Assembly: GCA_038040485.1 (NCBI GenBank)
Contig: JBBPIE010000006.1
Location: 142,435-206,434 of the forward strand
Reading direction: 5' to 3'
DNA: 64,000 nucleotides
From: Candidatus Onstottus arcticum
Lineage (GTDB): Bacteria; Acidobacteriota; Blastocatellia; UBA7656
Under the pieces are notes generated by a model. The model did not search any database and was not told the origin of the DNA. It was given only the letters and a program-made list of their open reading frames with translations. Positions 2,587 through 58,735 of the stretch are shown here, piece by piece (position 1 is the stretch's first letter; each line of letters opens with the position of its first letter). The position numbers and the translations under genes were made by a program.

Positions 2587-3822
2587 ATGACAAATCTCTT
2601 GGTTACGCGGTTGCTGTCGGTTCTTTTGTTTACCCCGCTCTTTGGTTTCGGACAGAAGCCGCTGCCGTCGACACAGCAAGTCCCAACCCAACCTACGGCT
2701 ACGAATCAATCCAAAAAAACCGGCGGCCAGCCAAGGGCGCGGGAATCATTAGCGGAAGCCGGAGCGACGTCAACGTCGAAGCTCGCTTTGCCATTCAAAC
2801 GAGCCTGGCAGCATCTCACGGGCGGCGCGACCCCGATCGCGCCCACGGTCGACGACGCGCGCATCTACCTGCCGCTCACCGGCGGCCGCGTGTCTTGCCT
2901 AGACCGGCAGACCGGCTCTTTGCTCTGGTCGAGCGAGCCGGGCGGACAGATCACCGCGCCCGCCGCAGCCGGCGACAACTCGATCTATATCGCGACTCGC
3001 AACGTCGGAGAAGACGGCACGGAAGCAGGCGGCTCGTTGCGCGCGGTGGACAAGGCTACTGGACTCACCGTGTGGGTGCGCGACTACCCGCGCGCGTTCT
3101 CGTCGACCCTCGAGCTTGCCGCAGGCCGGGTCTACGCCGGAAGCTCGGACGGCTCGTTCTATGCGCTCGAATCGAAGAACGGCGAGATCATTTGGAAGGT
3201 CGAATCCCAGGACGTCGTTCGAGGCCGCGCGCTTGTGACCGAGCAAGCCATCTATTTCGGAAGCGACGACGGAGTCTTGCGAGTCGTCGAGCACCAACGC
3301 GGCCAGCTCATCTGGAAGTATCAAACGGGTGGGAGAATCATCGGGCAGCCGGTCGCCGGCGAACGAGAACTGTATTTCGGATCGGGAGATGGGTACGTCT
3401 ATTCGCTGGAGCTCGCAACCGGCAAGCTTCGTTGGCGATCGCGCACAGGCGCCGCGGTGGAAGCGTCGCCTGTCATTGTCGGCGACCGCCTGCTTGTAGC
3501 GTCTTACGATAACTTTGTGTACGCGCTGTCGCGCGCAAGCGGCGACCGAATCTGGAAACGCCGTCTCGAAAACCGCATCACCGCCGCGCCCATAGTCGAA
3601 GGCGACGCAAACCTCGTAGCTCCCTTGCACGGTGATTATGTCGCGGTCTTCTTGAACGCCGATGGCCGTCGAGTAAACCTCTTTCAACTGGATCCCGACT
3701 TCGAGATCGTGGCTGAGCCGGTCTTTTCGCGCGACACTCTGGTGATTCCTACAAATCAGGGGTTGGTCGTTGCGACCGCCGCCAAACCGGCCGAGCCGCA
3801 AACCAGCGCGATCAAGAAATGA
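2587..3822 (+). CDS. PQQ-like beta-propeller repeat protein (BamB/YVTN-like), secreted
   Basis: ATG at 2587 gives the signal peptide MTNLLVTRLLSVLLFTPLFGFG. Repeated PQQ-type blades follow (GGRVSCLDRQTGSLLWS, GSFYALESKNGEIIWK, GVLRVVEHQRGQLIWKYQTGG, YVYSLELATGKLRWRS, FVYALSRASGDRIWKRRL). The track start at 2581 is a TTG. Confidence 0.8.
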   Translation: MTNLLVTRLLSVLLFTPLFGFGQKPLPSTQQVPTQPTATNQSKKTGGQPRARESLAEAGATSTSKLALPFKRAWQHLTGGATPIAPTVDDARIYLPLTGGRVSCLDRQTGSLLWSSEPGGQITAPAAAGDNSIYIATRNVGEDGTEAGGSLRAVDKATGLTVWVRDYPRAFSSTLELAAGRVYAGSSDGSFYALESKNGEIIWKVESQDVVRGRALVTEQAIYFGSDDGVLRVVEHQRGQLIWKYQTGGRIIGQPVAGERELYFGSGDGYVYSLELATGKLRWRSRTGAAVEASPVIVGDRLLVASYDNFVYALSRASGDRIWKRRLENRITAAPIVEGDANLVAPLHGDYVAVFLNADGRRVNLFQLDPDFEIVAEPVFSRDTLVIPTNQGLVVATAAKPAEPQTSAIKK

Positions 3823-4247
3823 TCGAGGTAAGAAATCGCCGCAGTGCCAACTTCAAATTATGCGGACGCTCAACGGTCTCGTCGGCACTGCGGCGAGGGG
3901 GGATCGAAACTAGGGAGCGGTAGGTTCGATTTGGGGCGGGGCGACAGACAACTACAAGCCAATCTCGTATTAGGTCATCGCCGTTTTGAGGGAGCTGTTG
4001 TTACTGATATCAACTCGCATACCACAGCCGGCTGCGCCTGCCTTGAACCTCAACTCTTTGTGAATGCTCGCAATAAGCGGCGTCGATGGGTTAGGTCGGC
4101 TGACTGATTCAGCCAGAATGAAAGAAGCCGTTCAACGGTGTAAGCGATATTGACCGAGCGCTATCAGTGAGATGAACGATCGCGCAAAGAAGCGCGTCAC
4201 CCGATGACAAGGGCTGTCATCGCCGGGTCCCATCACGCGTCACTCCC

Positions 4248-4320
4248 TGGGAGCGCAGGCATCCCGCCTGCTGCTTGGTGGCGTGTGAGAAGAGGCAGGC
4301 AGGGATGCCTGCGCTCCCAG
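4248..4320. repeat. MITE/REP-like palindromic element, family A (termini TGGGAGCGCAGGCATCCC...GGGATGCCTGCGCTCCCA), copy 1
   Basis: A 24-nt left arm (4248-4271) and the right arm (4295-4320) are reverse complements, flanking a 23-nt loop. The element lies 6 nt downstream of the aminotransferase stop (4326-4328) and could act as its terminator hairpin. Confidence 0.65.
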
Positions 4321-4325
4321 AGGAC

Positions 4326-5540
4326 TCAACTCGTTATTGCCCGGCACATTCGCTCGACGCCTTCAGAGATCGCTTCCGGCGACTCCTTCGAGTAAGCCAG
4401 CCTCATCGTGTTTGCTCCGCTGCCGTCAACAAAAAAGGGCTGACCCGGTACGTAAGCAACACCGCCGGCGATGGCGCGGGGAAGAACTTCAGTGGCATCG
4501 ATCCGGTTTGCGAGCTCCAACAGAATGAAGAACCCGCCGATGGGCTTTGTCCACCGCGAGCCCGCCGGCGCGAAGCGCTCCAGCGCTTCGAGCATCGCGC
4601 GGCAGCGGACTTCGTAGAAACGGCGAAGCTCGGGCAGCCGCCGCTCAATCAAGCCCGAGAGAATTGCTTCAGCGACGATCGTCTGATCCAGGACACTCGA
4701 GGAGAGATCGGCCCCTTCCTTGGCTAGCTCGATCTTCTTCGCTATCGGCTCTGGCGCGCGCAGATACGCGGTTCGAATGCCGGGCGCGAGCACTTTGGAG
4801 AAAGTACCCAAATAGACGACTCGCTCCGGCCGAAGCGCCGCAAGCGGAACCAGCCGCGCCCCTTCAGATTCGAAATACAGATCGAAGTAAGCGTCGTCCT
4901 CGATGATCAACAAATCGTGCTCGTCGGCTATCTCGACAAGCTGATGCCGCCGCTCGGTCGCAAGCGTCACCCCCGAAGGGTTCTGAAAATTCGGAATCGT
5001 GTAGATGCACTTGATGCGGCGGCCTTCTCTCGAGACCTGATCGAGCTTCTCGCGGAGGTCGCCGATGACGATGCCGCCGTCATCCTGCCGCACACCGATC
5101 ATCTCAGCTTGCGAGTTGTGCAATGCAATGATTCCGCCGATGTAACTCGGAAGTTCTACTAGCGCTATGTCACCCGGATCGATGATCACCCGCGAGATCA
5201 GGTCGAGACCCTGTTGAGAGCCGCTGGTCATAATGACTTCGGCGGACGAGACATGAGTCAACCCTCGTTCACGCAGAAGTCCGACGACCGCATCAACCAG
5301 GGCGGGCTGGCCCTTGGTCGGCCCATACTGAAGGGCGACGGGTCCTCGCTCGCGGATGACTCGCGAAGCGATCTCGGCAAGCTCCTCGATCGGAAACGTT
5401 TCGGCGCTGGGAGCGCCCGCCGCCAACGAGATCACTTCCTTGTTGCCCAGCAACGCAGTGAGCTTTCGGATCGCGTTCGGACGGATCCGGCGACCCAGCT
5501 CGGAAAGCATCTCGTCGTATTGGATTTCGGTTTTAAGCAT
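4326..5540 (-). CDS. PLP-dependent aminotransferase, class I/II fold (AAT-like / 2-aminoadipate transaminase-like)
   Basis: 404 aa with ATG start. Typical aminotransferase I/II blocks are present (LAAGAPS, NPSG, LIIEDDAYFDL, TFSKVLAPGIRTAYL with the Schiff-base Lys). Confidence 0.85.
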   Translation of the reverse strand: MLKTEIQYDEMLSELGRRIRPNAIRKLTALLGNKEVISLAAGAPSAETFPIEELAEIASRVIRERGPVALQYGPTKGQPALVDAVVGLLRERGLTHVSSAEVIMTSGSQQGLDLISRVIIDPGDIALVELPSYIGGIIALHNSQAEMIGVRQDDGGIVIGDLREKLDQVSREGRRIKCIYTIPNFQNPSGVTLATERRHQLVEIADEHDLLIIEDDAYFDLYFESEGARLVPLAALRPERVVYLGTFSKVLAPGIRTAYLRAPEPIAKKIELAKEGADLSSSVLDQTIVAEAILSGLIERRLPELRRFYEVRCRAMLEALERFAPAGSRWTKPIGGFFILLELANRIDATEVLPRAIAGGVAYVPGQPFFVDGSGANTMRLAYSKESPEAISEGVERMCRAITS

Positions 5541-17432: not shown

Positions 17433-17525
17433 GGAGAAGTCGCCTAGTGGCTGAGGGCGGCGGTTTGCTAAACCGCTATAGGCTGTAAAGGCCTATCGAG
17501 GGTTCGAATCCCTCCTTCTCCGCCA
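17433..17525 (+). tRNA. tRNA-Ser (anticodon GCU), CCA encoded
   Basis: Acceptor GGAGAAG/CTTCTCC, D-arm GCC..GGC, anticodon stem GCGGT/ACCGC with loop TTGCTAA, long variable arm, T-arm GAGGG TTCGAAT CCCTC, discriminator G, CCA. Confidence 0.9.
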
Positions 17526-18472: not shown

Positions 18473-18740
18473 TTGAGATCTCCGTCAAGTCGTGGAGCAA
18501 GCACAATCTGCAAAGGAGTTTCTGAACAAACCGCCTGCTCGGAGCTAAGAGAATATTCGACGGCTTCGGACGTGTCCACCGGCCCGCGACCCCGCGCGAA
18601 CCCCGCGCCTTTCCGGCTCCGCGGTTGGTCGGTGATGCGGTCGACTTCTAACCGCGGAGGCGCCGAGACGCGGAGGCTTGCGCAGAGACTACCGCGGCCC
18701 TTAATAATGAAGGCCGCCAACGGCGGCGGCCTTGAGTGAG

Positions 18741-18813
18741 TACCCGCGGCGGGATTCGAACCTGCGGCCTCTTGCTCCGGAGGCAAGCGCTCTATCCACT
18801 GAGCTACGCGGGC
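18741..18813 (-). tRNA. tRNA-Arg (anticodon CCG), CCA not encoded
   Basis: Reverse complement GCCCGCGTAGCTCAGTGGATAGAGCGCTTGCCTCCGGAGCAAGAGGCCGCAGGTTCGAATCCTGCCGCGGGTA. Cloverleaf with anticodon loop CUCCGGA. Confidence 0.85.
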
Positions 18814-30056: not shown

Positions 30057-31340
30057 TTGAAAGTAACACTGGCTCAGCGCCTCCGCCGCTTCCCACTCTG
30101 GCGCCCTCTCGCCCAGCGTGACTTCCGGCTGCTGTTCGTGGGACAAAGCGTCTCGCTGTTTGGCGACCAGTTCTATCTGGTGGCGCTGACCTGGCTGACC
30201 TTACAACTGACCGGGTCGGGGCTGGCGCTCGGAACCGTGTTGATGGTTGGGGGCGGCGCGCGGGGAGTTTTTCAACTGGTCGGCGGCGCGCTCAGCGATC
30301 GGATGTCGCAACGAACGATCCTTCTCATCTCGAATATCGTGCGTGCGCTTGTGAGCGCGCTGCTCACCGCTGTTGTGTTTCTTGGGATCACGCGACTCTG
30401 GCATTTGATTGTGCTTTCGCTGCTGTTCGGAATTGTCGACGCATTTTTTCAGCCGGCCTTCCTGGCGTTCGTCCCGAGGCTCATCGACAGGAACCAACTC
30501 ACCGCGGGCAGTGCGCTAATGCGCGGGTCTAGCCGGCTGATGGGAATGGTCGGACCTGCGGCAGCGGGGTTGGTCCTCTACAGGGTCGGCATGGCATCCG
30601 CTTTTGCGCTCGACACGGCGACCTTCGTATTCGCGGCGTCCACCGTCTGGTTGATGAGAAAACCCAGGTTGCCTGCTTCGTCAGATCGAGAGTTGAAGGA
30701 GGAAGAAACCTCTACTCTGAAAGGATTGCTCGGATCAATCAGAGAGGGGCTCAAGTATGCGTGGAGCGATCCGCTCCTTCGAACGCTGCTGATCTTCATT
30801 ACCGCGGTTGAATTCTCATTCGTCGGCGCGTCAGGCGTCGGACTGGCGGTGCTGGCAAAGGACAGGTTCGGCGGCGGAGACGCGGCCTCGGAGGGCGGCG
30901 CTGCATTCGCGACGATCCTCGCAGCCATGGGAGCGGGGGCCTGGATTGGGATGATTGTGGCTGGCTCAATCGAGGCACCGAAGAGAAAAGGCCGGCTTGT
31001 CGTTGGGCTCTCATTCATGATGGGCGCCGGGCTCGCAGTGGTTGGAGTTGCGCCGAACGTCGTCACCGCTTCGATCGTGTTCGGCTTTGTTGGCCTGGGC
31101 GGCGGGATGGCCAACATCATCATACTGGCATGGATGCAGGCGCGCACGGATCCGCAGATGCTGGGCCGGGTAATGGCGCTGGCGATGTTCATGGTCTCGG
31201 TGATAGAACCGCTTTCGCTTGCGCTTGCGGGGCTGATCGCCGACTACAACGTAACTCTGATGTTTGCCGCAGCCGGCGGAGTCTTGCTGGCCACCAGTGC
31301 CCTTTCACTCGCAAGCAGAACTCTGCTAACCAGCGACTGA
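30057..31340 (+). CDS. MFS transporter (12 TM; EntS/DHA3-like)
   Basis: 427 aa. TTG start with SD GAGGAG upstream. N-terminus FRLLFVGQSVSLFGDQFYLVALTWL and two 6-TM halves typical of MFS. Confidence 0.85.
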   Translation: MKVTLAQRLRRFPLWRPLAQRDFRLLFVGQSVSLFGDQFYLVALTWLTLQLTGSGLALGTVLMVGGGARGVFQLVGGALSDRMSQRTILLISNIVRALVSALLTAVVFLGITRLWHLIVLSLLFGIVDAFFQPAFLAFVPRLIDRNQLTAGSALMRGSSRLMGMVGPAAAGLVLYRVGMASAFALDTATFVFAASTVWLMRKPRLPASSDRELKEEETSTLKGLLGSIREGLKYAWSDPLLRTLLIFITAVEFSFVGASGVGLAVLAKDRFGGGDAASEGGAAFATILAAMGAGAWIGMIVAGSIEAPKRKGRLVVGLSFMMGAGLAVVGVAPNVVTASIVFGFVGLGGGMANIIILAWMQARTDPQMLGRVMALAMFMVSVIEPLSLALAGLIADYNVTLMFAAAGGVLLATSALSLASRTLLTSD

Positions 31341-31518
31341 TGATTCAAGACCGAGACTAAATCGAGACTCTCAGATAGAGGCGGGCGGCGAAGCAAACGT
31401 CGGCGGGCCTGTCCTCTGCGTCGGGTCGAGGTCGTCGTGAGTTGGAAACGCTCCGACGGCCTTCGCCATCCCTTGCCATTCATCATTGCACCCCATGACC
31501 TGCTACCGGCAAGCGGAG

Positions 31519-31554
31519 TGTGTAGCTGCTTCACAAGTGTGAAGCAGCTACACA
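31519..31554. promoter_or_regulatory. perfect 36-bp palindrome TGTGTAGCTGCTTCACA-AG-TGTGAAGCAGCTACACA (operator-like)
   Basis: Exact 17-nt inverted arms. A third direct copy of the 17-mer lies at 31606-31622 and a degenerate copy at about 31569-31587. Confidence 0.8.
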
Positions 31555-31605
31555 TAGCCCGTAACCTGTTACACACCCGTAGCTTGAGCGCAGAACCGAG
31601 AGTCG

Positions 31606-31622
31606 TGTGTAGCTGCTTCACA
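31606..31622. repeat. third copy of the TGTGTAGCTGCTTCACA half-site
   Basis: Exact match to the left arm of the 36-bp palindrome, 52 nt downstream. Confidence 0.8.
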
Positions 31623-32109
31623 CTTTCGCCATTCTAAGTCTCGCGCGGCCGAACCACGTAAGTCACTGAATTCACAAACCTGCTGGTCGGGCCACGGCTT
31701 GATCCCGCAGCGGCACGCGCATTGCCCTACAGATCGGCGTAACGAGCGGAAAAAGCTGAGGCCAATCGTGGAGGCCAAAGCCAAACCACAAGAACGACAA
31801 AGGAGACTGCCATGTTGTGTGACGCAAGAGTACTGATGGACGACTAATTAGCTTAGCCTGAACAACCTTGCGAAGGCCCAGCGATTCATTGAGGGCCTAG
31901 CCACAGACCACCTTCGTCTATGCGTTAAGGACGGAGGGCGCGGAAAGCCAAAAAGGGAGATCCGTATGGCTCGCGTAGAAACCTCTTCAAGTATGGGCGT
32001 GATCTTTGACGAAATCGGAATCGAAGAAGTGATCGCCCCTCGTCTCTGAACTGCTAAACCGCCGGGCAACCGCGGTAAGTTCAACCGAAGCGCGCACTAG
32101 GTTGCGAGC

Positions 32110-32244
32110 TTAAACGGGCCGACCGTCCGAGGCCTCTTCGAGGGTCTCGCGGTTGGCCGTATTTCCGAAGCCCATTCTTTCCAACAGACTCACAAACCGC
32201 GGATCGTCACGCAGACGATCCACCAACGGATCGACCTTGAGCAT
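32110..32244 (-). pseudogene. possible remnant: C-terminal 44 codons of a TPR-type protein (…DPRFVSLLERMGF…)
   Basis: Minus-strand frame reads MLKVDPLVDRLRDDPRFVSLLERMGFGNTANRETLEEASDGRPV*. This resembles C-terminal tails of TPR-containing kinases/cyclases. A stop lies immediately upstream in frame. No full gene. Confidence 0.25.
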
Positions 32245-32431
32245 CGCGACCGCTTACCTTGACCAGACACAATATCTGAACCACTTCTACCTGATCAGCC
32301 TGCTACTTCGACGACGCGGCCGGCATCGTCTTTTGTCGAGCGCGTGGCGCCGAATGCTCGCGGACTCACTACTTGCGACTCGTGCGACGGCGATCAATGC
32401 ACCGCCCATACTCCAACGCACTCCTCTTTAA

Positions 32432-33640
32432 TCACTTCTTCTTACTTGCTGTCAGATATGCCTTGGATTGCTGGCCTACGATCTCAATCAGGTTGCCAAT
32501 CGCCAGGTGAACATCGATCAGGTGCAGTCCCCAATCCGCTTGAACCTGTCCGTTCACCACAATATCTCCCACGATGTCGTCGGCCCGAGGGTCGGCAGGG
32601 TCGGCATGAACAGTGATCGCGAGATAGGAGCCTTTTTCGTTCGAGATGCATTCGGCGGTAAGCAGACCGGGAACGCTCACAAAAGGCGTGCTGACCGGCT
32701 GCGCAGGGGTGACCCATGGAAGGGGCTCGGCGGAAGAGCCGAGCGATCGTCCCGCGGATGCCAGATACGCATGCAACTTCCCGCTACCGCCGCCCAGCGC
32801 CGCCGGGTTTGTGCAACCGGATTCCATGTTCTCGCCGGATACACGTCCGAACCGGGTGTTGGATGGCGGCGGCACATTAGACCGGAACGAAGCGTAGGTG
32901 ATTACGCATCCGGTTTGGGACGCGGAGCGGCATAGCGGCATTTGCTTAAAAGCGCCGCCAACGTCCTTTCCTCGCGGCACCGGAAGACTGGTCCCCAACA
33001 ACAACGCGGAGACAATGCGCGACTGCACGGCTTTGCCATCGATCTCGTTACGGATCAGTTGAGTAAGCACTAACGAGCCTTGTGAGTGGCCGATCAGAAC
33101 TACGCCGCGGCCCTGATTGTCATGTTCTAGGTAGTAGTTCCAAGCATCGACGACATCGTTGTAGCCGAGCGCCAGATTGGCGGTCATAGGCTTGCCCGCG
33201 ATCAACGCCCGAAGCGCGGTCAGCGTGACCTGCCGGTAGAGCGGCGCGTAGGTACGGCACTCCGAGCCGAAGCGCGCGAACTGCGCGGGGATCACCGCGA
33301 GTTCTTCCGGGCCGGCGCTCATGTCGCTGTTGGGCGTTGCGTCGTTAGAGACGGTGGGGTAGACATAGAAGCAGTCGATTGCCGCCTTGGGATTTGCCTT
33401 CCAGATTTCGCGCGTCAGCTTGCCGTTGGCTCCGACAACGGTTGTAGTCAGATCAACGGCGCAGGCATCTTGCCGGCCGGGTCTGCAGAGCCAGCTCTTG
33501 CCGTCGCCGTAATCGTTCTTCCCCGAAGCGGCGGCAGGCTCCGGTTTGTCCGTCGTCTGCGCCGCCGCCGTTCCGGCGCCTGCAAGGCACGTTATCAATC
33601 CCGCCATCAGCGCTAAAGCAAAAACAGATCGTCGTAGCAT
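32432..33640 (-). CDS. secreted alpha/beta hydrolase, DUF3089-like (GHSQGS lipase-type nucleophile)
   Basis: ATG (complement of 33638-33640) gives the signal peptide MLRRSVFALALMAGLITCLAGAGTAAAQ. GxSxG motif VVLIGHSQGSLVL. The track ORF extends 84 codons further upstream without support. Confidence 0.7.
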   Translation of the reverse strand: MLRRSVFALALMAGLITCLAGAGTAAAQTTDKPEPAAASGKNDYGDGKSWLCRPGRQDACAVDLTTTVVGANGKLTREIWKANPKAAIDCFYVYPTVSNDATPNSDMSAGPEELAVIPAQFARFGSECRTYAPLYRQVTLTALRALIAGKPMTANLALGYNDVVDAWNYYLEHDNQGRGVVLIGHSQGSLVLTQLIRNEIDGKAVQSRIVSALLLGTSLPVPRGKDVGGAFKQMPLCRSASQTGCVITYASFRSNVPPPSNTRFGRVSGENMESGCTNPAALGGGSGKLHAYLASAGRSLGSSAEPLPWVTPAQPVSTPFVSVPGLLTAECISNEKGSYLAITVHADPADPRADDIVGDIVVNGQVQADWGLHLIDVHLAIGNLIEIVGQQSKAYLTASKKK

Positions 33641-33908
33641 GAGTTCTCCTGTCGGGTTTTTTGAGCGGCAAATATACAACATCGGAGCCGAGTGCACGAG
33701 CGGTCTGGTTTCTTCAATGCAAGAACAGGTTGCTGTTGACAACAGTCGAGGCGGTATAGGATAACCGCGCTGTCGGTTCCGAGATTGCCGTCGAGCAGCC
33801 GTGACGAGGCGAGGACCCCCTTTGGCCCAAGAAATTGTCCCGACCCTCACCGTCCGTTGCTCAACTAGTCTTTGAGCCTCGTGGGCAATCAATTCTTCAA
33901 GAGGAAGT

Positions 33909-36356
33909 ATGGAAAGCCTGAGACAGGATTTAGCTTACGGCCTTCGAGCGCTGGTCAAGAGCCCGGGATTCACAATCGTGGCGGTACTGACGCTTGGGCT
34001 TGGGACGGGCGCCAACACCGCAATCTTCAGCGTATTGAACGGAGTTCTGCTGAGACCGCTCCCGTTTCGGGAGCCCGAACGGCTGGTGATGGTGTGGAAC
34101 AATAACACCAAAGCAAATCAGCCACAGGCAGCACTATCGGTGCCGGATCTTCTCGACTACCGCGAGAACAACGTGTTCGAGCAGATCGCCAGTCTTGCAT
34201 ACGACGACTTCAATCTGACGGGCGGCGACCAACCCGAGCGCCTTCAAGGAACGATGGTATCAGCCAACTTCTTTTCAGTGCTTGGCGTGACCGCTCAAGT
34301 CGGTCGAGTGTTTCTACCCGACGAAGGTCAATCCGGCGCGGACCGCGTAGTGGTCATCAGCAGCGGCTTGTGGAAGCGGCGTTTCGGCGGGGATCCCGCG
34401 GTTGTCAGCCAGACGATTCCGCTCAACGGTGCCAGCTTCACGGTGGTGGGAGTTGCGCCAGCGGAGTTTCAATCGCCGGAGAAGGGCGATGAGCTTTGGG
34501 TTCCGATGTCGTTTGATGCCGCTGACCGGCTGCGGATTCCTTCGATCAGCGCGCCGGAAGATTTCAAGAGGCGCTCCTTTCGTTTTCTCAAGAGCTTTGC
34601 GCGGCTGAGGCCAGGCGCCGCACTCGATCAAGCTCAAGCCGAGATGGCGACGATCGCGGGCCGCCTCGAACAACAGTACCCGGACTCAAACACCGGTCTG
34701 GGAATCAGCCTTGTTCCCTTGCACCGCCAGATCGTGGGCGACGTCAAGCCTGCGTTGCTTCTGCTCCTAGCGGCGGTCGGGCTCGTGCTATTGATCGCGT
34801 GCGCCAACGTGGCCAACCTTCTGCTTGCGCGGGCCGCCTCCCGTCAAAAGGAAATCGCGATTCGGGTTGCGCTTGGCGCGGGCCGCGCGAGGTTGATTCG
34901 CCAGTTACTGACCGAAAGTGTGATGCTCGCGCTCGCTGGCGGCGGTCTTGGACTAGGGGTGGCGTGGGTGGGCCTGAGGGCGCTGATCGGAATCAATCCG
35001 CCGAACGTCCCACGATTGGAGACCATCGGAATCGATGCGCGGGTGCTTGGCTTTACGCTGCTGGTGTCGTTGTTGACCGGGTTGGTGTTCGGGCTTGTGC
35101 CGGCGCTCCAGGCTTCGCGGCCGGATTTGAATGAGGCTTTGAAAGAAGGCGGACGTGGCTCAACTGGCGGGATTGGCCGGCGGCGTGTCCGCAGCATTCT
35201 GGTCGTCACCGAAGTTGCGCTGACCCAGATGCTGTTGATCGGGGCTGGCTTGATGCTCAAGAGCTTCTACTCGTTGCAACAAGTAAATCCCGGCTTCACT
35301 CCCGACAGCGTCTTGACGATGCAGGTGACGCTGCCTCCCGTGAAGTACGCGGAACCCAGCCAGATCGCGGCTTTCTACGAACAAGCTCTGAAGCGCATCG
35401 AAACGCTTCCCGGCGTGCAGTCGGTGGGCGCCGCGACCTCTCTTCCTCTCACCGCCAACAGCCTTGCGCGCCGGTTTACGATTGACGGACGCGCGCCGGG
35501 TTCGCCAAATGAACGGCTGGTGGCAGGTTACGGCGCGGTCAGTCCGGACTACTTTCTCGCGATGGGCATTCGATTGATAAACGGGCGAGCGTTTACCAAT
35601 CAGGATCGTGACAAGTCGCCGCAGGTCATCGTCATCAACGAGACGATGCGCCGGCGATTCTGGCCGAATGAAGATCCGATTGGCAGACGCATCAGCATCA
35701 CTGCGGAACGCGGAGTCTCACGTGAAATCGTCGGAGTCGTCGCGGACGTCAAGAACTCGAGCCTCGACTCCGAGTCCGGACTCCAGATGTACGAGCCATA
35801 CTTGCAGGTGCCGTGGAACTTCATGGCGATAGCCGTGCGCACTGGGGCTAGTCCGCTTAGCCTGGCACAGCCTGTGAGAGACGAGATTCTCGGTGTCGAC
35901 AAGGCCCAACCTGTCTACGACGTAAAAACGATGGCTCAGATCGTTGACGACTCGGTGTCCCAGCCGCGGCTCTACATGCTGTTGCTCGCGGTGTTCGCCG
36001 GGGTCGCGCTGTCCCTCGCGGCTGTCGGAATCTACGGTGTGATGAACTATTCTGTGAACCAGCGAAAGCACGAGATCGGGATTCGGATGGCGATTGGCGC
36101 TCAGCCCTTGGACATAATGAAGCTGATCCTGGGGCAAGGGATGCTTCTGGCAATCATCGGCGTTGCAGTGGGAGCCGCCGCCGCGTTTTTCCTCGGCAGG
36201 TTTATCGAGATGCTCTTGTTTGGCGTAAGCGGGAGAGACTTAACTACGTTCATCGGGATTCCAATTGTACTCCTTCTGGTTTCGCTGCTGGCCAGCTATG
36301 TTCCTGCGCGCCGGGCTACCCGTGTAGATCCGATGATCGCGCTTCGAGCCGAATAA
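33909..36356 (+). CDS. ADOP-family duplicated orphan permease (FtsX/MacB-like ABC transporter permease, two FtsX domains)
   Basis: 815 aa, ATG with SD GAGGAAG. N-terminus MESLRQDLAYGLRALVKSPGFTIVAVLTLGLGTGANTAIFSVLNGVLLRPLPF is the ADOP/MacB-permease signature. Two 4-TM FtsX modules. Confidence 0.9.
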   Translation: MESLRQDLAYGLRALVKSPGFTIVAVLTLGLGTGANTAIFSVLNGVLLRPLPFREPERLVMVWNNNTKANQPQAALSVPDLLDYRENNVFEQIASLAYDDFNLTGGDQPERLQGTMVSANFFSVLGVTAQVGRVFLPDEGQSGADRVVVISSGLWKRRFGGDPAVVSQTIPLNGASFTVVGVAPAEFQSPEKGDELWVPMSFDAADRLRIPSISAPEDFKRRSFRFLKSFARLRPGAALDQAQAEMATIAGRLEQQYPDSNTGLGISLVPLHRQIVGDVKPALLLLLAAVGLVLLIACANVANLLLARAASRQKEIAIRVALGAGRARLIRQLLTESVMLALAGGGLGLGVAWVGLRALIGINPPNVPRLETIGIDARVLGFTLLVSLLTGLVFGLVPALQASRPDLNEALKEGGRGSTGGIGRRRVRSILVVTEVALTQMLLIGAGLMLKSFYSLQQVNPGFTPDSVLTMQVTLPPVKYAEPSQIAAFYEQALKRIETLPGVQSVGAATSLPLTANSLARRFTIDGRAPGSPNERLVAGYGAVSPDYFLAMGIRLINGRAFTNQDRDKSPQVIVINETMRRRFWPNEDPIGRRISITAERGVSREIVGVVADVKNSSLDSESGLQMYEPYLQVPWNFMAIAVRTGASPLSLAQPVRDEILGVDKAQPVYDVKTMAQIVDDSVSQPRLYMLLLAVFAGVALSLAAVGIYGVMNYSVNQRKHEIGIRMAIGAQPLDIMKLILGQGMLLAIIGVAVGAAAAFFLGRFIEMLLFGVSGRDLTTFIGIPIVLLLVSLLASYVPARRATRVDPMIALRAE

Positions 36357-56281: not shown

Positions 56282-58735
56282 CTATCTTTCTTGTTTTGCG
56301 CCTCGCGGCTCGAGCACCAGCCGCTCGGCGGCATTCTTCTCAACCTTTTCCCGGCTGAACAGCATAGGGAAATACTTCCCTTCGACCCAGAGCGGCAAAA
56401 GGTCGGCGTAGTGCGGACTCGTCGGCTGACCCGACTGACCAGGCACGTTGATTGCGACCGAGTTGTCCCAATCGCTCAGATCGAGTATCTCGCGAAACGA
56501 CGCGCCGGCTCGCTGTATGAACTTGGGGCCGCTCGTAGCGTTGACTGTGTTCCCGTCGCCGCCGCGTGCAACACTCTTCAGGTCGAACACTGATCGCGTT
56601 GCGTCGTCCGTCGAGAGCGGATGCTTGAACTCCGCGACATGAAGATCGCTCCAGCGCCATTTCTTCATGTCGGGTCCGAATCGGGCGCGCAGCTCCCTCA
56701 CCGCGTCAGCGAAACTCATCGCGACCAGCAGACGCGCTTTGCCCTGTGCGTTCGCTCCGAACAACTTCGCGTCGGGATTCTTCAGCGCCCGGATCATCGT
56801 TGTGAACAGCACGCCGCTACCAACCTTCCCCCGCGCTTCGGCAGGAAGAATCCGATCCGCGAAAGTCACCCCGAGTTTCTGAATCCACATTTCGTAAATC
56901 GCGGCGCCTGCGGAGTCCTTCGCTAACACGCGGTCCCATCTGAGAAGGAGCCTGCCTGCTTGCTGGATGTGTATCGGAAACCCGGCAAGCCGGCCCTTCA
57001 AAAGCGGCACAAGTTCGCGAGCCGGAAGCGATGCTTCGTCGTGCTGCAATCGTTTGAAGTCTTCAACCGTGAACTTCGCACTCTTGCCCAGCACCTCCTC
57101 GATCCGATTGAAGCGATACGGCGCGGCCCATTCAAAGTTGATCTCGTGCTTGTATCCCTCCGGGATGACTTTGTGATTGGCTGTAGCGATGAAATTCTTC
57201 GCCGGGTTGTATGCGCGCGGCAACTCCGAAAGCGGAAGGAACCCGTCCCACTCGTAGCGGCCGGAATCGCCCGGCACCGGCAGCAAACCCGACCATCCGC
57301 GCCTAACCGGAGCCGCGCCTGCCGCTTGCCAGCCGATGTTCCCGTCCACGTCCGCGTAAACCAGATTCTCCGAAGGCACCTTCCAGCGTTCGAGCGCCTT
57401 CAAGAACTCGGGCCAGTTCTTCGCGCGATTCAGCGAGAGCGATGCCAGGTAACCCGCCGACCCGGGCTCGCTTCCAATCCACTTCAGCGCGTACGCGCGA
57501 TCGAGATCCGGATCCTCGTAGATAACCGGCCCGTGCCTTGTGAACTTCAGCTCCACGTCGATTGGTTCAGCCCTGCCTTTTACTTTGATCTTCTCATGCT
57601 CGACCCTCATACGAAGCCACTTGTCCTTGAAGCGGTACACAGTCGGGAAGTTCGGGCGGATTTGTTCGACGTAGAGGTCTTGCTGGTCGATGCCGACGAT
57701 CGTGAACCCGAATCCGATTCGCTCATTGTGCCCCGCCGCGACTCCCGGCAGAGTCGGTTCGCCCGCGCCGATTACATTCCAACCCGGTCCTACCAGATGA
57801 ACCATATACCTGAGCGAGGGCAACAGGATTGGCCGATGCGGATCGTTAGCGAGAATCGGTTTGCCGGTCGCCGAAAGCGCGCCGCTTACGACCCAGTTGT
57901 TGCTGCCTTCGGTTCGCGAACGCGCTTCGATCTGGGCGAGGGTTTCGCCATCGCCCGCCAGACTCGAGGTTGCGGACGCGCCTCCCGAAAAGCTCACCGG
58001 CGTGCTGGCGGCTTTCGCTCCCGCGAGTATCTTTTCGTCGATGCCGGTCAGGTCCAGACCCGCGGGCACTTCAACTTTCTTAAAGGGATCAGTCTCGATC
58101 CATAGATCGACCTTCTCGGGACCGAACCGTTTTACGAGTTGCGCCCGAAGGACTTCCGCCGACGCATTGCGGGTCATCACATATCCCGCCATTCTCGTCA
58201 GACAAACTTCGGGCGTCCACGGCTCCGGCTTGATGCCCGTCAACTCGAACTCGATGGGTAAACGGTCGCGGCTCGTCTCGATAAACGCGTTCACGCCTCT
58301 GACGAACGACTCGATGATCTGCTTGGCGTCGGGCGCGTAGCTCTGCCACTCGGCTTCCATGTTTCCACGGTAGCGCATGAGCCGCGCGAACTTGTCGCGC
58401 TCGACGGCCGATTCTCCCAGCACCTCCGCGAGCTTGCCCTCTCCGGTTCGACGCCAGATCTCCATTTGCCACAGCCGGTCTTGCGCGGCGACAAAACCCT
58501 GGGCAAAGAACAAATCCTCCTGGGTCTCCGCGTAGATGTGCGGGACACCCCAGCGGTCACGGATGACTTCAACCGGCTTCTGTAAGCCGTCCAACTCGAT
58601 CCGCCCCGACGTCTGAGCCAGCGCGGCTCGCGCGCGCGAACGGAGATCGGCAACCGACCGGTCCAACGAATTGCCGCTGATTCCGATCTGGATCGCGAGG
58701 CCAACGGCCAGGATGGTGAGGGCGAGCTTCTTCAT
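56282..58735 (-). CDS. penicillin acylase / N-acyl-homoserine-lactone acylase family (Ntn hydrolase)
   Basis: ATG at 58735 gives the signal peptide [21 protein letters not shown]. Autoproteolytic/nucleophile motif GSNNWVVSG and a downstream DPH block. Confidence 0.9.

Follow-up and report, generated by a model that had tools for sequence, protein, structure and literature searches.

The window analysed here, a stretch of 64,000 nucleotides (64 kb) from a contig of Candidatus Onstottus arcticum, contains a 1091-bp gap on which an MFS transporter gene and a DUF3089 gene converge, as the initial annotation had recorded. That annotation also called the gap gene-poor; its account of the flanks is right, but the gap itself holds, beside an array of repeated 17-mers, a predicted sigma-54-type promoter and a conserved 27-codon ORF. 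The features of the region are listed below, with centres given relative to the predicted transcription start.

30057-31340 (+): MFS transporter gene
31519-31535 (+): site 1 (s1), predicted bEBP-type near-palindromic 17-bp site, centre about -210
31538-31554 (inverted): site 2 (s2), the inverted 17-mer, 19 bp from s1 start-to-start, centre about -191
31606-31622 (+): site 3 (s3), third exact copy, 68 bp from s2, centre about -123
31659-31671 (+): IHF-like motif TAAGTCACTGAAT, with 2 mismatches in the window, centre about -72
31712-31725 (+): predicted sigma-54 (RpoN) promoter core GGCACGcgcaTTGC, with the -24 GG at 31712-31713 and the -12 GC at 31724-31725
31813-31845 (+): tiny upstream ORF MLCDARVLMDD in the 5' leader, with Shine-Dalgarno sequence AAGGAGA
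31966-32049 (+): conserved small ORF of 27 aa, MARVETSSSMGVIFDEIGIEEVIAPRL, with Shine-Dalgarno sequence AAGGGAGA
32117-32158 (+): strong, G+C-rich hairpin past the small ORF, with a weak T-run
32432-33892 (-): DUF3089 gene
33909-36356: ADOP-family MacB-like permease gene, beyond the DUF3089 gene and indicative of Acidobacteria

The public contig carries one further gene call in the gap, a 44-aa ORF at 32110-32244 (-) (MLKVDPLVDRLRDDPRFVSLLERMGFGN...) that overlaps the putative terminator hairpin. It has no match in a Pfam search and looks like the C-terminal remnant of a larger protein. With Rfam run at its gathering threshold on the window, the sole Rfam and ARAGORN matches are tRNA-Ser(GCT) at 17433-17525 (+) and tRNA-Arg(CCG) at 18740-18813 (-).

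Direct reading of the sequence and pattern searches of the 64-kb window bore out the central observation of the initial annotation, a perfect palindrome at 31519-31554 with a third copy downstream. Sites 1 and 3 are exact copies of TGTGTAGCTGCTTCACA on the + strand and site 2 is the reverse complement; the palindrome reads TGTGTAGCTGCTTCACA-AG-TGTGAAGCAGCTACACA, a perfect 17+17 inverted repeat with a 2-nt spacer. Beyond these three sites, the window holds no other copy of the 17-mer with three or fewer mismatches. The chance expectation for matches at this threshold is 0.06, and the observed count was reached in 0 of 100 shuffles. The 17-mer is itself near-palindromic, at 14 of its 17 positions (TGTG.AGC.GCT.CACA), and site 2 with its flank is complementary to site 3 over 20 nt. 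The 68 bp between sites 2 and 3 correspond to about 6.5 helical turns, so that without a bend in the spacer site 3 would face the other side of the helix. We found no compositional anomaly at the locus.

The exact 17-mer was found at 28 loci when prokaryotic genomes, one for each species, were scanned. Fifteen share a common architecture, 14 of them in Blastocatellia MAGs and one on a contig binned as Clostridia, and each of these genomes has a single such locus. The remaining 13 are lone matches in unrelated taxa, and we read these as chance, since they are in line with a chance expectation that we estimate at about 70 matches for a 17-mer in 1.2e12 strand-bases. To the 15 loci we added one reached through the regulator protein described below (L030) and six metagenome contigs, giving 22 related loci, nearly all from Blastocatellia. 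The comparison with relatives that the initial annotation had proposed gave a uniform picture: the three-site array is retained in 22 of 22, with exactly three sites arranged as a pair and then a single site (for the 15 scan loci, as found by a fuzzy search). Sites 1 and 2 are 19 bp apart, start to start, in every locus; sites 2 and 3 are separated by 67-70 bp in 20 loci and by 78-80 bp in the remaining two. Across the 22 loci, the mean frequency of the most common base is 0.96 in site 1, 0.90 in site 2 and 0.89 in site 3, 0.89 in the promoter core and 0.84 in the IHF-like motif. The corresponding values are 0.45-0.56 in spacers and flanks, with 0.45 upstream of site 1 and 0.47-0.49 on the flanks of the IHF-like motif.

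The orientation of the sites is less constant than their spacing. Among 17 loci, sites 1, 2 and 3 run + - + in eight, + + - in five, + - - in two and + + + in one, with one ambiguous. Site 2 is thus flipped in 6 of 17 loci, and the perfect palindrome seen in the window is not conserved. The 17-mer is polar. In 50 of the 51 sites from these loci, its positions 5 and 13 have one and the same base (T,T or A,A), and the palindromic T/A pair never occurs. Site 1 is of the T type in 16 of 17 loci (L010 is ambiguous), and sites 2 and 3 flip between species. A simple symmetric-dimer model leaves this polarity unexplained.

When the loci are aligned with the pair first and the single site second, an almost invariant GGCACG-N4-TTGC appears about 96 bp past the centre of site 3 (94-98 bp, and 87 bp in one locus). 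Sigma-54 promoters have the core TGGCAC-N5-TTGCW, with GG at -24 and GC at -12, and are of a type that cannot fire without an enhancer-bound ATPase. A core of this kind lies at the same relative position, with at most one mismatch, in 21 of the 21 related loci that reach that far. Support for the predicted promoter is entirely comparative; the window by itself has no statistical excess of the motif, with five matches at one mismatch or fewer against 7.1 expected. A second exact GGCACG-N4-TTGC, at 56442-56455 (+), lies within a long ORF on the opposite strand and is probably there by chance. From the core, transcription is predicted to start near 31737. Also conserved between species are the approximately 15 nt past the predicted start (31736-31751, GGCGTAACGAGCGGAA).

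Between site 3 and the promoter, about 50 bp past site 3, the related loci share a conserved cTAAgTnnTTGAtT. The IHF consensus is WATCAAnnnnTTR, and the conserved motif is its reverse complement. Several relatives carry a perfect version (e.g. TAAGTCGTTGATT), and from this agreement with the consensus we infer that the motif is a candidate IHF site. In several species a second, weaker IHF-like motif falls between sites 2 and 3. This bears on another claim of the initial annotation, which had seen a degenerate copy of the 17-mer between the sites, at about 31567-31584. We find no fourth site at this position in any related locus; the stretch aligns instead with an IHF-like YAAnnnnTTGAT motif of other species and is degenerate in the window.

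Downstream of the predicted promoter, a block 450-615 nt past the site pair is 87-90% identical between species, and it contains the small ORF. The peptides follow the consensus GVIFDE[ILF].[IV]EEV[IV]AP, with two further residues that vary. Over 15 codons in 12 sequences, the minimum numbers of changes at the first, second and third codon positions are 7, 5 and 21, a coding signature for the ORF. The peptide is acidic, lacks a signal sequence and has no family match in Pfam or NCBIfam. We presume that it is the product of the putative sigma-54 transcription unit. In L030 a clean intrinsic terminator lies directly behind the small ORF, and the unit is therefore monocistronic there. In the window, the hairpin at 32117-32158 may be the terminator of the unit, although a terminator scan of the gap made no call, this hairpin included. 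The tiny upstream ORF could be a leader peptide or could have arisen by chance; L028, the closest relative, carries a comparable ORF of 9 codons (MCEGRILIN), also preceded by a Shine-Dalgarno sequence, within an apparently duplicated unit of about 100 nt.

The small ORF varies among relatives. In L004 and L025 there are two tandem, longer versions of 31-34 aa with C-terminal extensions (...EEVIAPGIIFTGKNP and ...EEIVAPGILLTD; L004 2092-2354). Behind the tandem ORFs, L004 encodes an 879-aa fusion of a daptide-type HExxH intramembrane metalloprotease to an HlyD adaptor (2731-5370), and a homologous ORF occupies this position in L025. HD-GYP/GAF/GGDEF proteins are encoded further on in L004 and in the L025 equivalent. 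In L005 the small ORF (about +441 to +521 from the pair) carries an in-frame TGA (GVIFDEIELE*VIAPRL), which may reflect a pseudogene or a sequencing error. The MFS and ADOP permease genes are conserved neighbours of the array, in varying order.

No regulator gene adjoins the array, according to the initial annotation. This is true of the window: six-frame searches for GAFTGA and Walker A motifs, together with tblastn, found no bEBP gene in the 64 kb, a Pfam scan of the ten largest nearby ORFs found neither a bEBP nor a two-component regulator, and neither an RpoN-box motif nor rpoN was found in the window. In most related loci, however, a gene for a sigma-54 activator (bEBP) lies beside the array or two genes upstream of it. 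As the window has no bEBP gene, the link between regulator and sites rests on these other genomes. An activator acting here would have to be encoded outside the 64-kb window and work in trans.

A bEBP is present in 10 of the related genome loci, and in 9 of the 10 it is an orthologous protein encoded on the same strand as the array. Its gene ends 32-90 nt upstream of site 1 in five loci (L004, L008, L017, L019 and L025) and 292 nt upstream in L013, and in three more (L003, L012 and L024) it stands two genes upstream, in the order bEBP-MFS-ADOP-sites. It likewise ends just upstream of the sites in L030 and in four metagenome contigs. A same-strand bEBP is linked to the sites in at least 13 related loci. 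Two distant members of the bEBP family (L031 and L032) have no sites beside the gene. The linkage is frequent, not universal, and the window is the mirror case, with sites and no gene.

The bEBP is a protein of about 1026 aa in which Pfam recognizes TPR or MalT-like TPR repeats, a Sigma54_activat domain (E = 8e-68), AAA_lid_14 and a C-terminal Fis-type HTH_8. The bEBPs of sister genomes carry the GAFTGA motif, and their presence would indirectly imply sigma-54. In an AlphaFold2 model of the N-terminal 723 residues (mean pLDDT 84), residues 1-510 form 12-13 TPR pairs, and a disordered linker leads from these to a small alpha/beta, GAF-like domain (545-680). The best matches of this model in a fold search are generic peptide-binding TPR superhelices (LGN/Pins and OGT), so that the ligand is not identifiable from the fold search. 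The family numbers 208 sequence clusters or more, practically all of them from Blastocatellia or Acidobacteriota, and carries only generic annotation such as 'sigma 54-interacting transcriptional regulator'. Its HTH segment GNIARAAKELGLSRKGLYLKMDRL is nearly invariant, mirroring the invariant DNA motif.

Two further arrangements accompany the family. In L008, L013 and L019, a second conserved sigma-54-type promoter diverges from the bEBP gene about 285 nt upstream of its start (TGGCATtcgtgTTGCA in L008 and L019), and GGCAT-type variants occur in L030 (near 9700) and L031 (near 9720). This divergent promoter leads to small membrane-protein genes, followed in L030 and L031 by methyltransferase, FAD-oxidoreductase and glycosyltransferase genes. 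We found no full 17-mer site there. In L005 (2418-2663, +), with an equivalent in L022, a stand-alone 81-aa HTH_8 protein is encoded right behind the small ORF. It shares 68-76% identity with the bEBP's C-terminal DNA-binding domain and could compete with the bEBP for the sites.

Collectively, the sites, their geometry, the promoter motif and the ORF are conserved, and the regulator gene neighbours them in relatives. The site centres, at about -123, -191 and -210, are placed as in enhancers, where dyad-symmetric sites lie about 80-200 bp upstream of the promoter. Judging from this comparative evidence, it is very probable that the three 17-mers form an upstream activator sequence, or enhancer, of a sigma-54-dependent promoter that switches on the gene for the 27-residue peptide. 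The cognate activator would be the bEBP of about 1026 aa, with its TPR superhelix, GAF-like domain, sigma-54 AAA+ module and HTH_8. From the layout we infer that the bEBP binds the sites and that IHF, the predicted start and the peptide have parts in the following sequence. Three bEBP dimers would bind s1, s2 and s3, and their six subunits would form an active hexameric AAA+ ring. A bend at the IHF-like motif would loop this ring onto RNA polymerase-sigma-54, waiting as a closed complex at GGCACG-N4-TTGC (31712-31725), with a second bend possible between sites 2 and 3, which lie 6.5 turns apart. ATP hydrolysis would then open the promoter, and a transcript from near 31737 with a leader of about 230 nt would serve as a short mRNA for the acidic peptide.

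The initial annotation had proposed a high-affinity operator for a dimeric repressor. Part of this stands, in that the array is under selection and appears to be made for a dimeric DNA-binding regulator. A cooperative dimeric repressor that occupies the three sites and shuts a nearby promoter would also suit their palindromic, high-information character, and a pair with a distal site permits looping; the 81-aa HTH_8 protein of L005 and L022 might compete for the sites in such a scheme. However, a repressor operator would overlap or flank a sigma-70 promoter and be linked to a repressor gene. A promoter scan found no sigma-70-like promoters in 31200-32600, the only conserved promoter element is of the sigma-54 type and lies 90-190 bp downstream, and the conserved neighbour is an activator with GAFTGA, with no repressor gene conserved nearby. 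We regard the repressor mechanism as highly unlikely and reject it, because a conserved sigma-54 promoter follows about 123-210 bp downstream of the sites and an IHF-like motif separates the two, which is the layout of an activating bEBP enhancer.

Equally slight is the probability that the sites belong to some other transcription factor, such as a CRP/FNR-like or nucleoid protein, unrelated to the neighbouring bEBP. The TGTG...CACA ends do resemble CRP-type half-sites, and the window itself has no bEBP, but the half-site spacing of CRP sites is one bp shorter than that of TGTG-N9-CACA. The fixed distance to the sigma-54 promoter and the linked bEBP with its invariant HTH, in at least 13 loci, also argue against an unrelated factor.

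Base pairing offers another way to read the array, as an RNA element in which an s1:s2 hairpin and s2:s3 pairing form a terminator/antiterminator switch, or as the stable 3' end of the upstream gene. In the window, s1:s2 would make a 17-bp stem with the 20-nt s2:s3 pairing as its alternative, and a + strand gene always ends just upstream of the array. Across relatives, though, in 7 of 17 loci only 13-14 of the 17 positions of s1 and s2 can form Watson-Crick pairs. The loss is uncompensated and arises because s2 is there a direct instead of an inverted copy. Conservation tracks half-site positions, as protein contacts would, rather than base pairs. Neither the compensatory change of a structured RNA nor the T-run of an intrinsic terminator is seen, and there is no terminator call. 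Rfam found no family near threshold in the gap, and its permissive mode there gave sub-threshold, hairpin-driven matches. We consider an RNA element extremely improbable. Iterons (raised in the initial annotation), a replication origin, a phage or plasmid origin, or a mobile-element remnant would suit identical 17-mers repeated within a non-coding gap. They can be dismissed with near certainty, as more than 20 species have the array at one syntenic chromosomal locus and only once in each genome, with no rep, par, integrase or transposase genes nearby, no anomaly of composition, no copies elsewhere in the window and neither the many copies nor the rep linkage of iterons and dispersed repeats (REP, MITE).

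If the array is a sigma-54 enhancer, the element is of a well-known kind, and the module around it is what appears to be undescribed: a bEBP with a TPR sensor and what seems to be one dedicated promoter, together with a conserved acidic mini-peptide and linked MFS/ADOP or protease-HlyD genes. We found no prior description of TPR-bEBPs or of the regulator-peptide module in the searchable literature. An unexplained palindrome becomes a complete, testable unit consisting of a probable enhancer, a candidate bending site, a predicted sigma-54 promoter and a small-peptide gene, and the bEBP family, with its 208 or more sequence clusters, gains a candidate DNA motif. Blastocatellia are abundant in soil and almost none of their regulation is known from experiment; an invariant 17-bp site and an activator with a single target would make an easy start for reporters and in vitro transcription.

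That a TPR sensor is paired with a peptide gene of its own leads to a further possibility that can be tested, namely that peptides are sensed by way of sigma-54. As a tentative extension, and one we think doubtful, the acidic peptide of 26-34 aa, or a processed form of it, would be the ligand of the activator's 12-13-repeat TPR superhelix and act in autoinduction. Receptor and pro-peptide promoter would then close a positive (or negative) feedback loop with a sigma-54 AAA+ output, unlike the HTH-only output of RRNPP systems, and the MFS and ADOP permeases, or the HExxH protease-HlyD fusion, would serve processing and export. If true, this would be a peptide-signalling circuit of a kind not known in Acidobacteria.

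Systems of the RRNPP type (PlcR-PapR, Rgg-SHP and AimR-AimP) are similar in that a TPR factor stands beside a peptide gene whose promoter carries the factor's sites, and the HExxH intramembrane protease fused to an HlyD-type exporter adds to the likeness in some relatives. The present module differs in its sigma-54 AAA+ output with a C-terminal HTH, where RRNPP factors have an N-terminal HTH, and in a peptide without a signal sequence. The fold search returned the TPR superhelices of LGN and OGT, not RRNPP receptors, and the similarity is a resemblance only.

On the side of the enhancer, NtrC sites at glnAp2 are 17-bp dyads and the NifA UAS is TGT-N10-ACA. The array shares with these systems dyads of 16-17 bp about 100-200 bp upstream of a -24/-12 promoter, a C-terminal Fis-type HTH in the activator and, as we propose here, DNA looping. 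The activator here differs in lacking a REC domain and in not being a response regulator. NCBIfam matches of the bEBP to NtrC, NorR and NifA cover the AAA+ and HTH part only, with scores under the cut-offs of those families.

The closest documented parallel is norVW of E. coli, where NorR needs three GT-N7-AC enhancer sites and IHF, all three sites being required for the active oligomer (PMC2831303). The motif differs, GT-N7-AC for NorR and TGTGTAGCtGCTTCACA here, as does the spacing, which here sets a pair and a site 68 bp away. The sensor of NorR is an NO-sensing GAF domain, compared with a TPR superhelix and a GAF-like domain in the bEBP, and its targets are NO reductase genes, compared with a 27-aa peptide. 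What the two have in common is the layout, with three inverted-repeat sites upstream of a sigma-54 promoter (predicted here) and, between sites and promoter, an IHF site (here a candidate, IHF-like motif).
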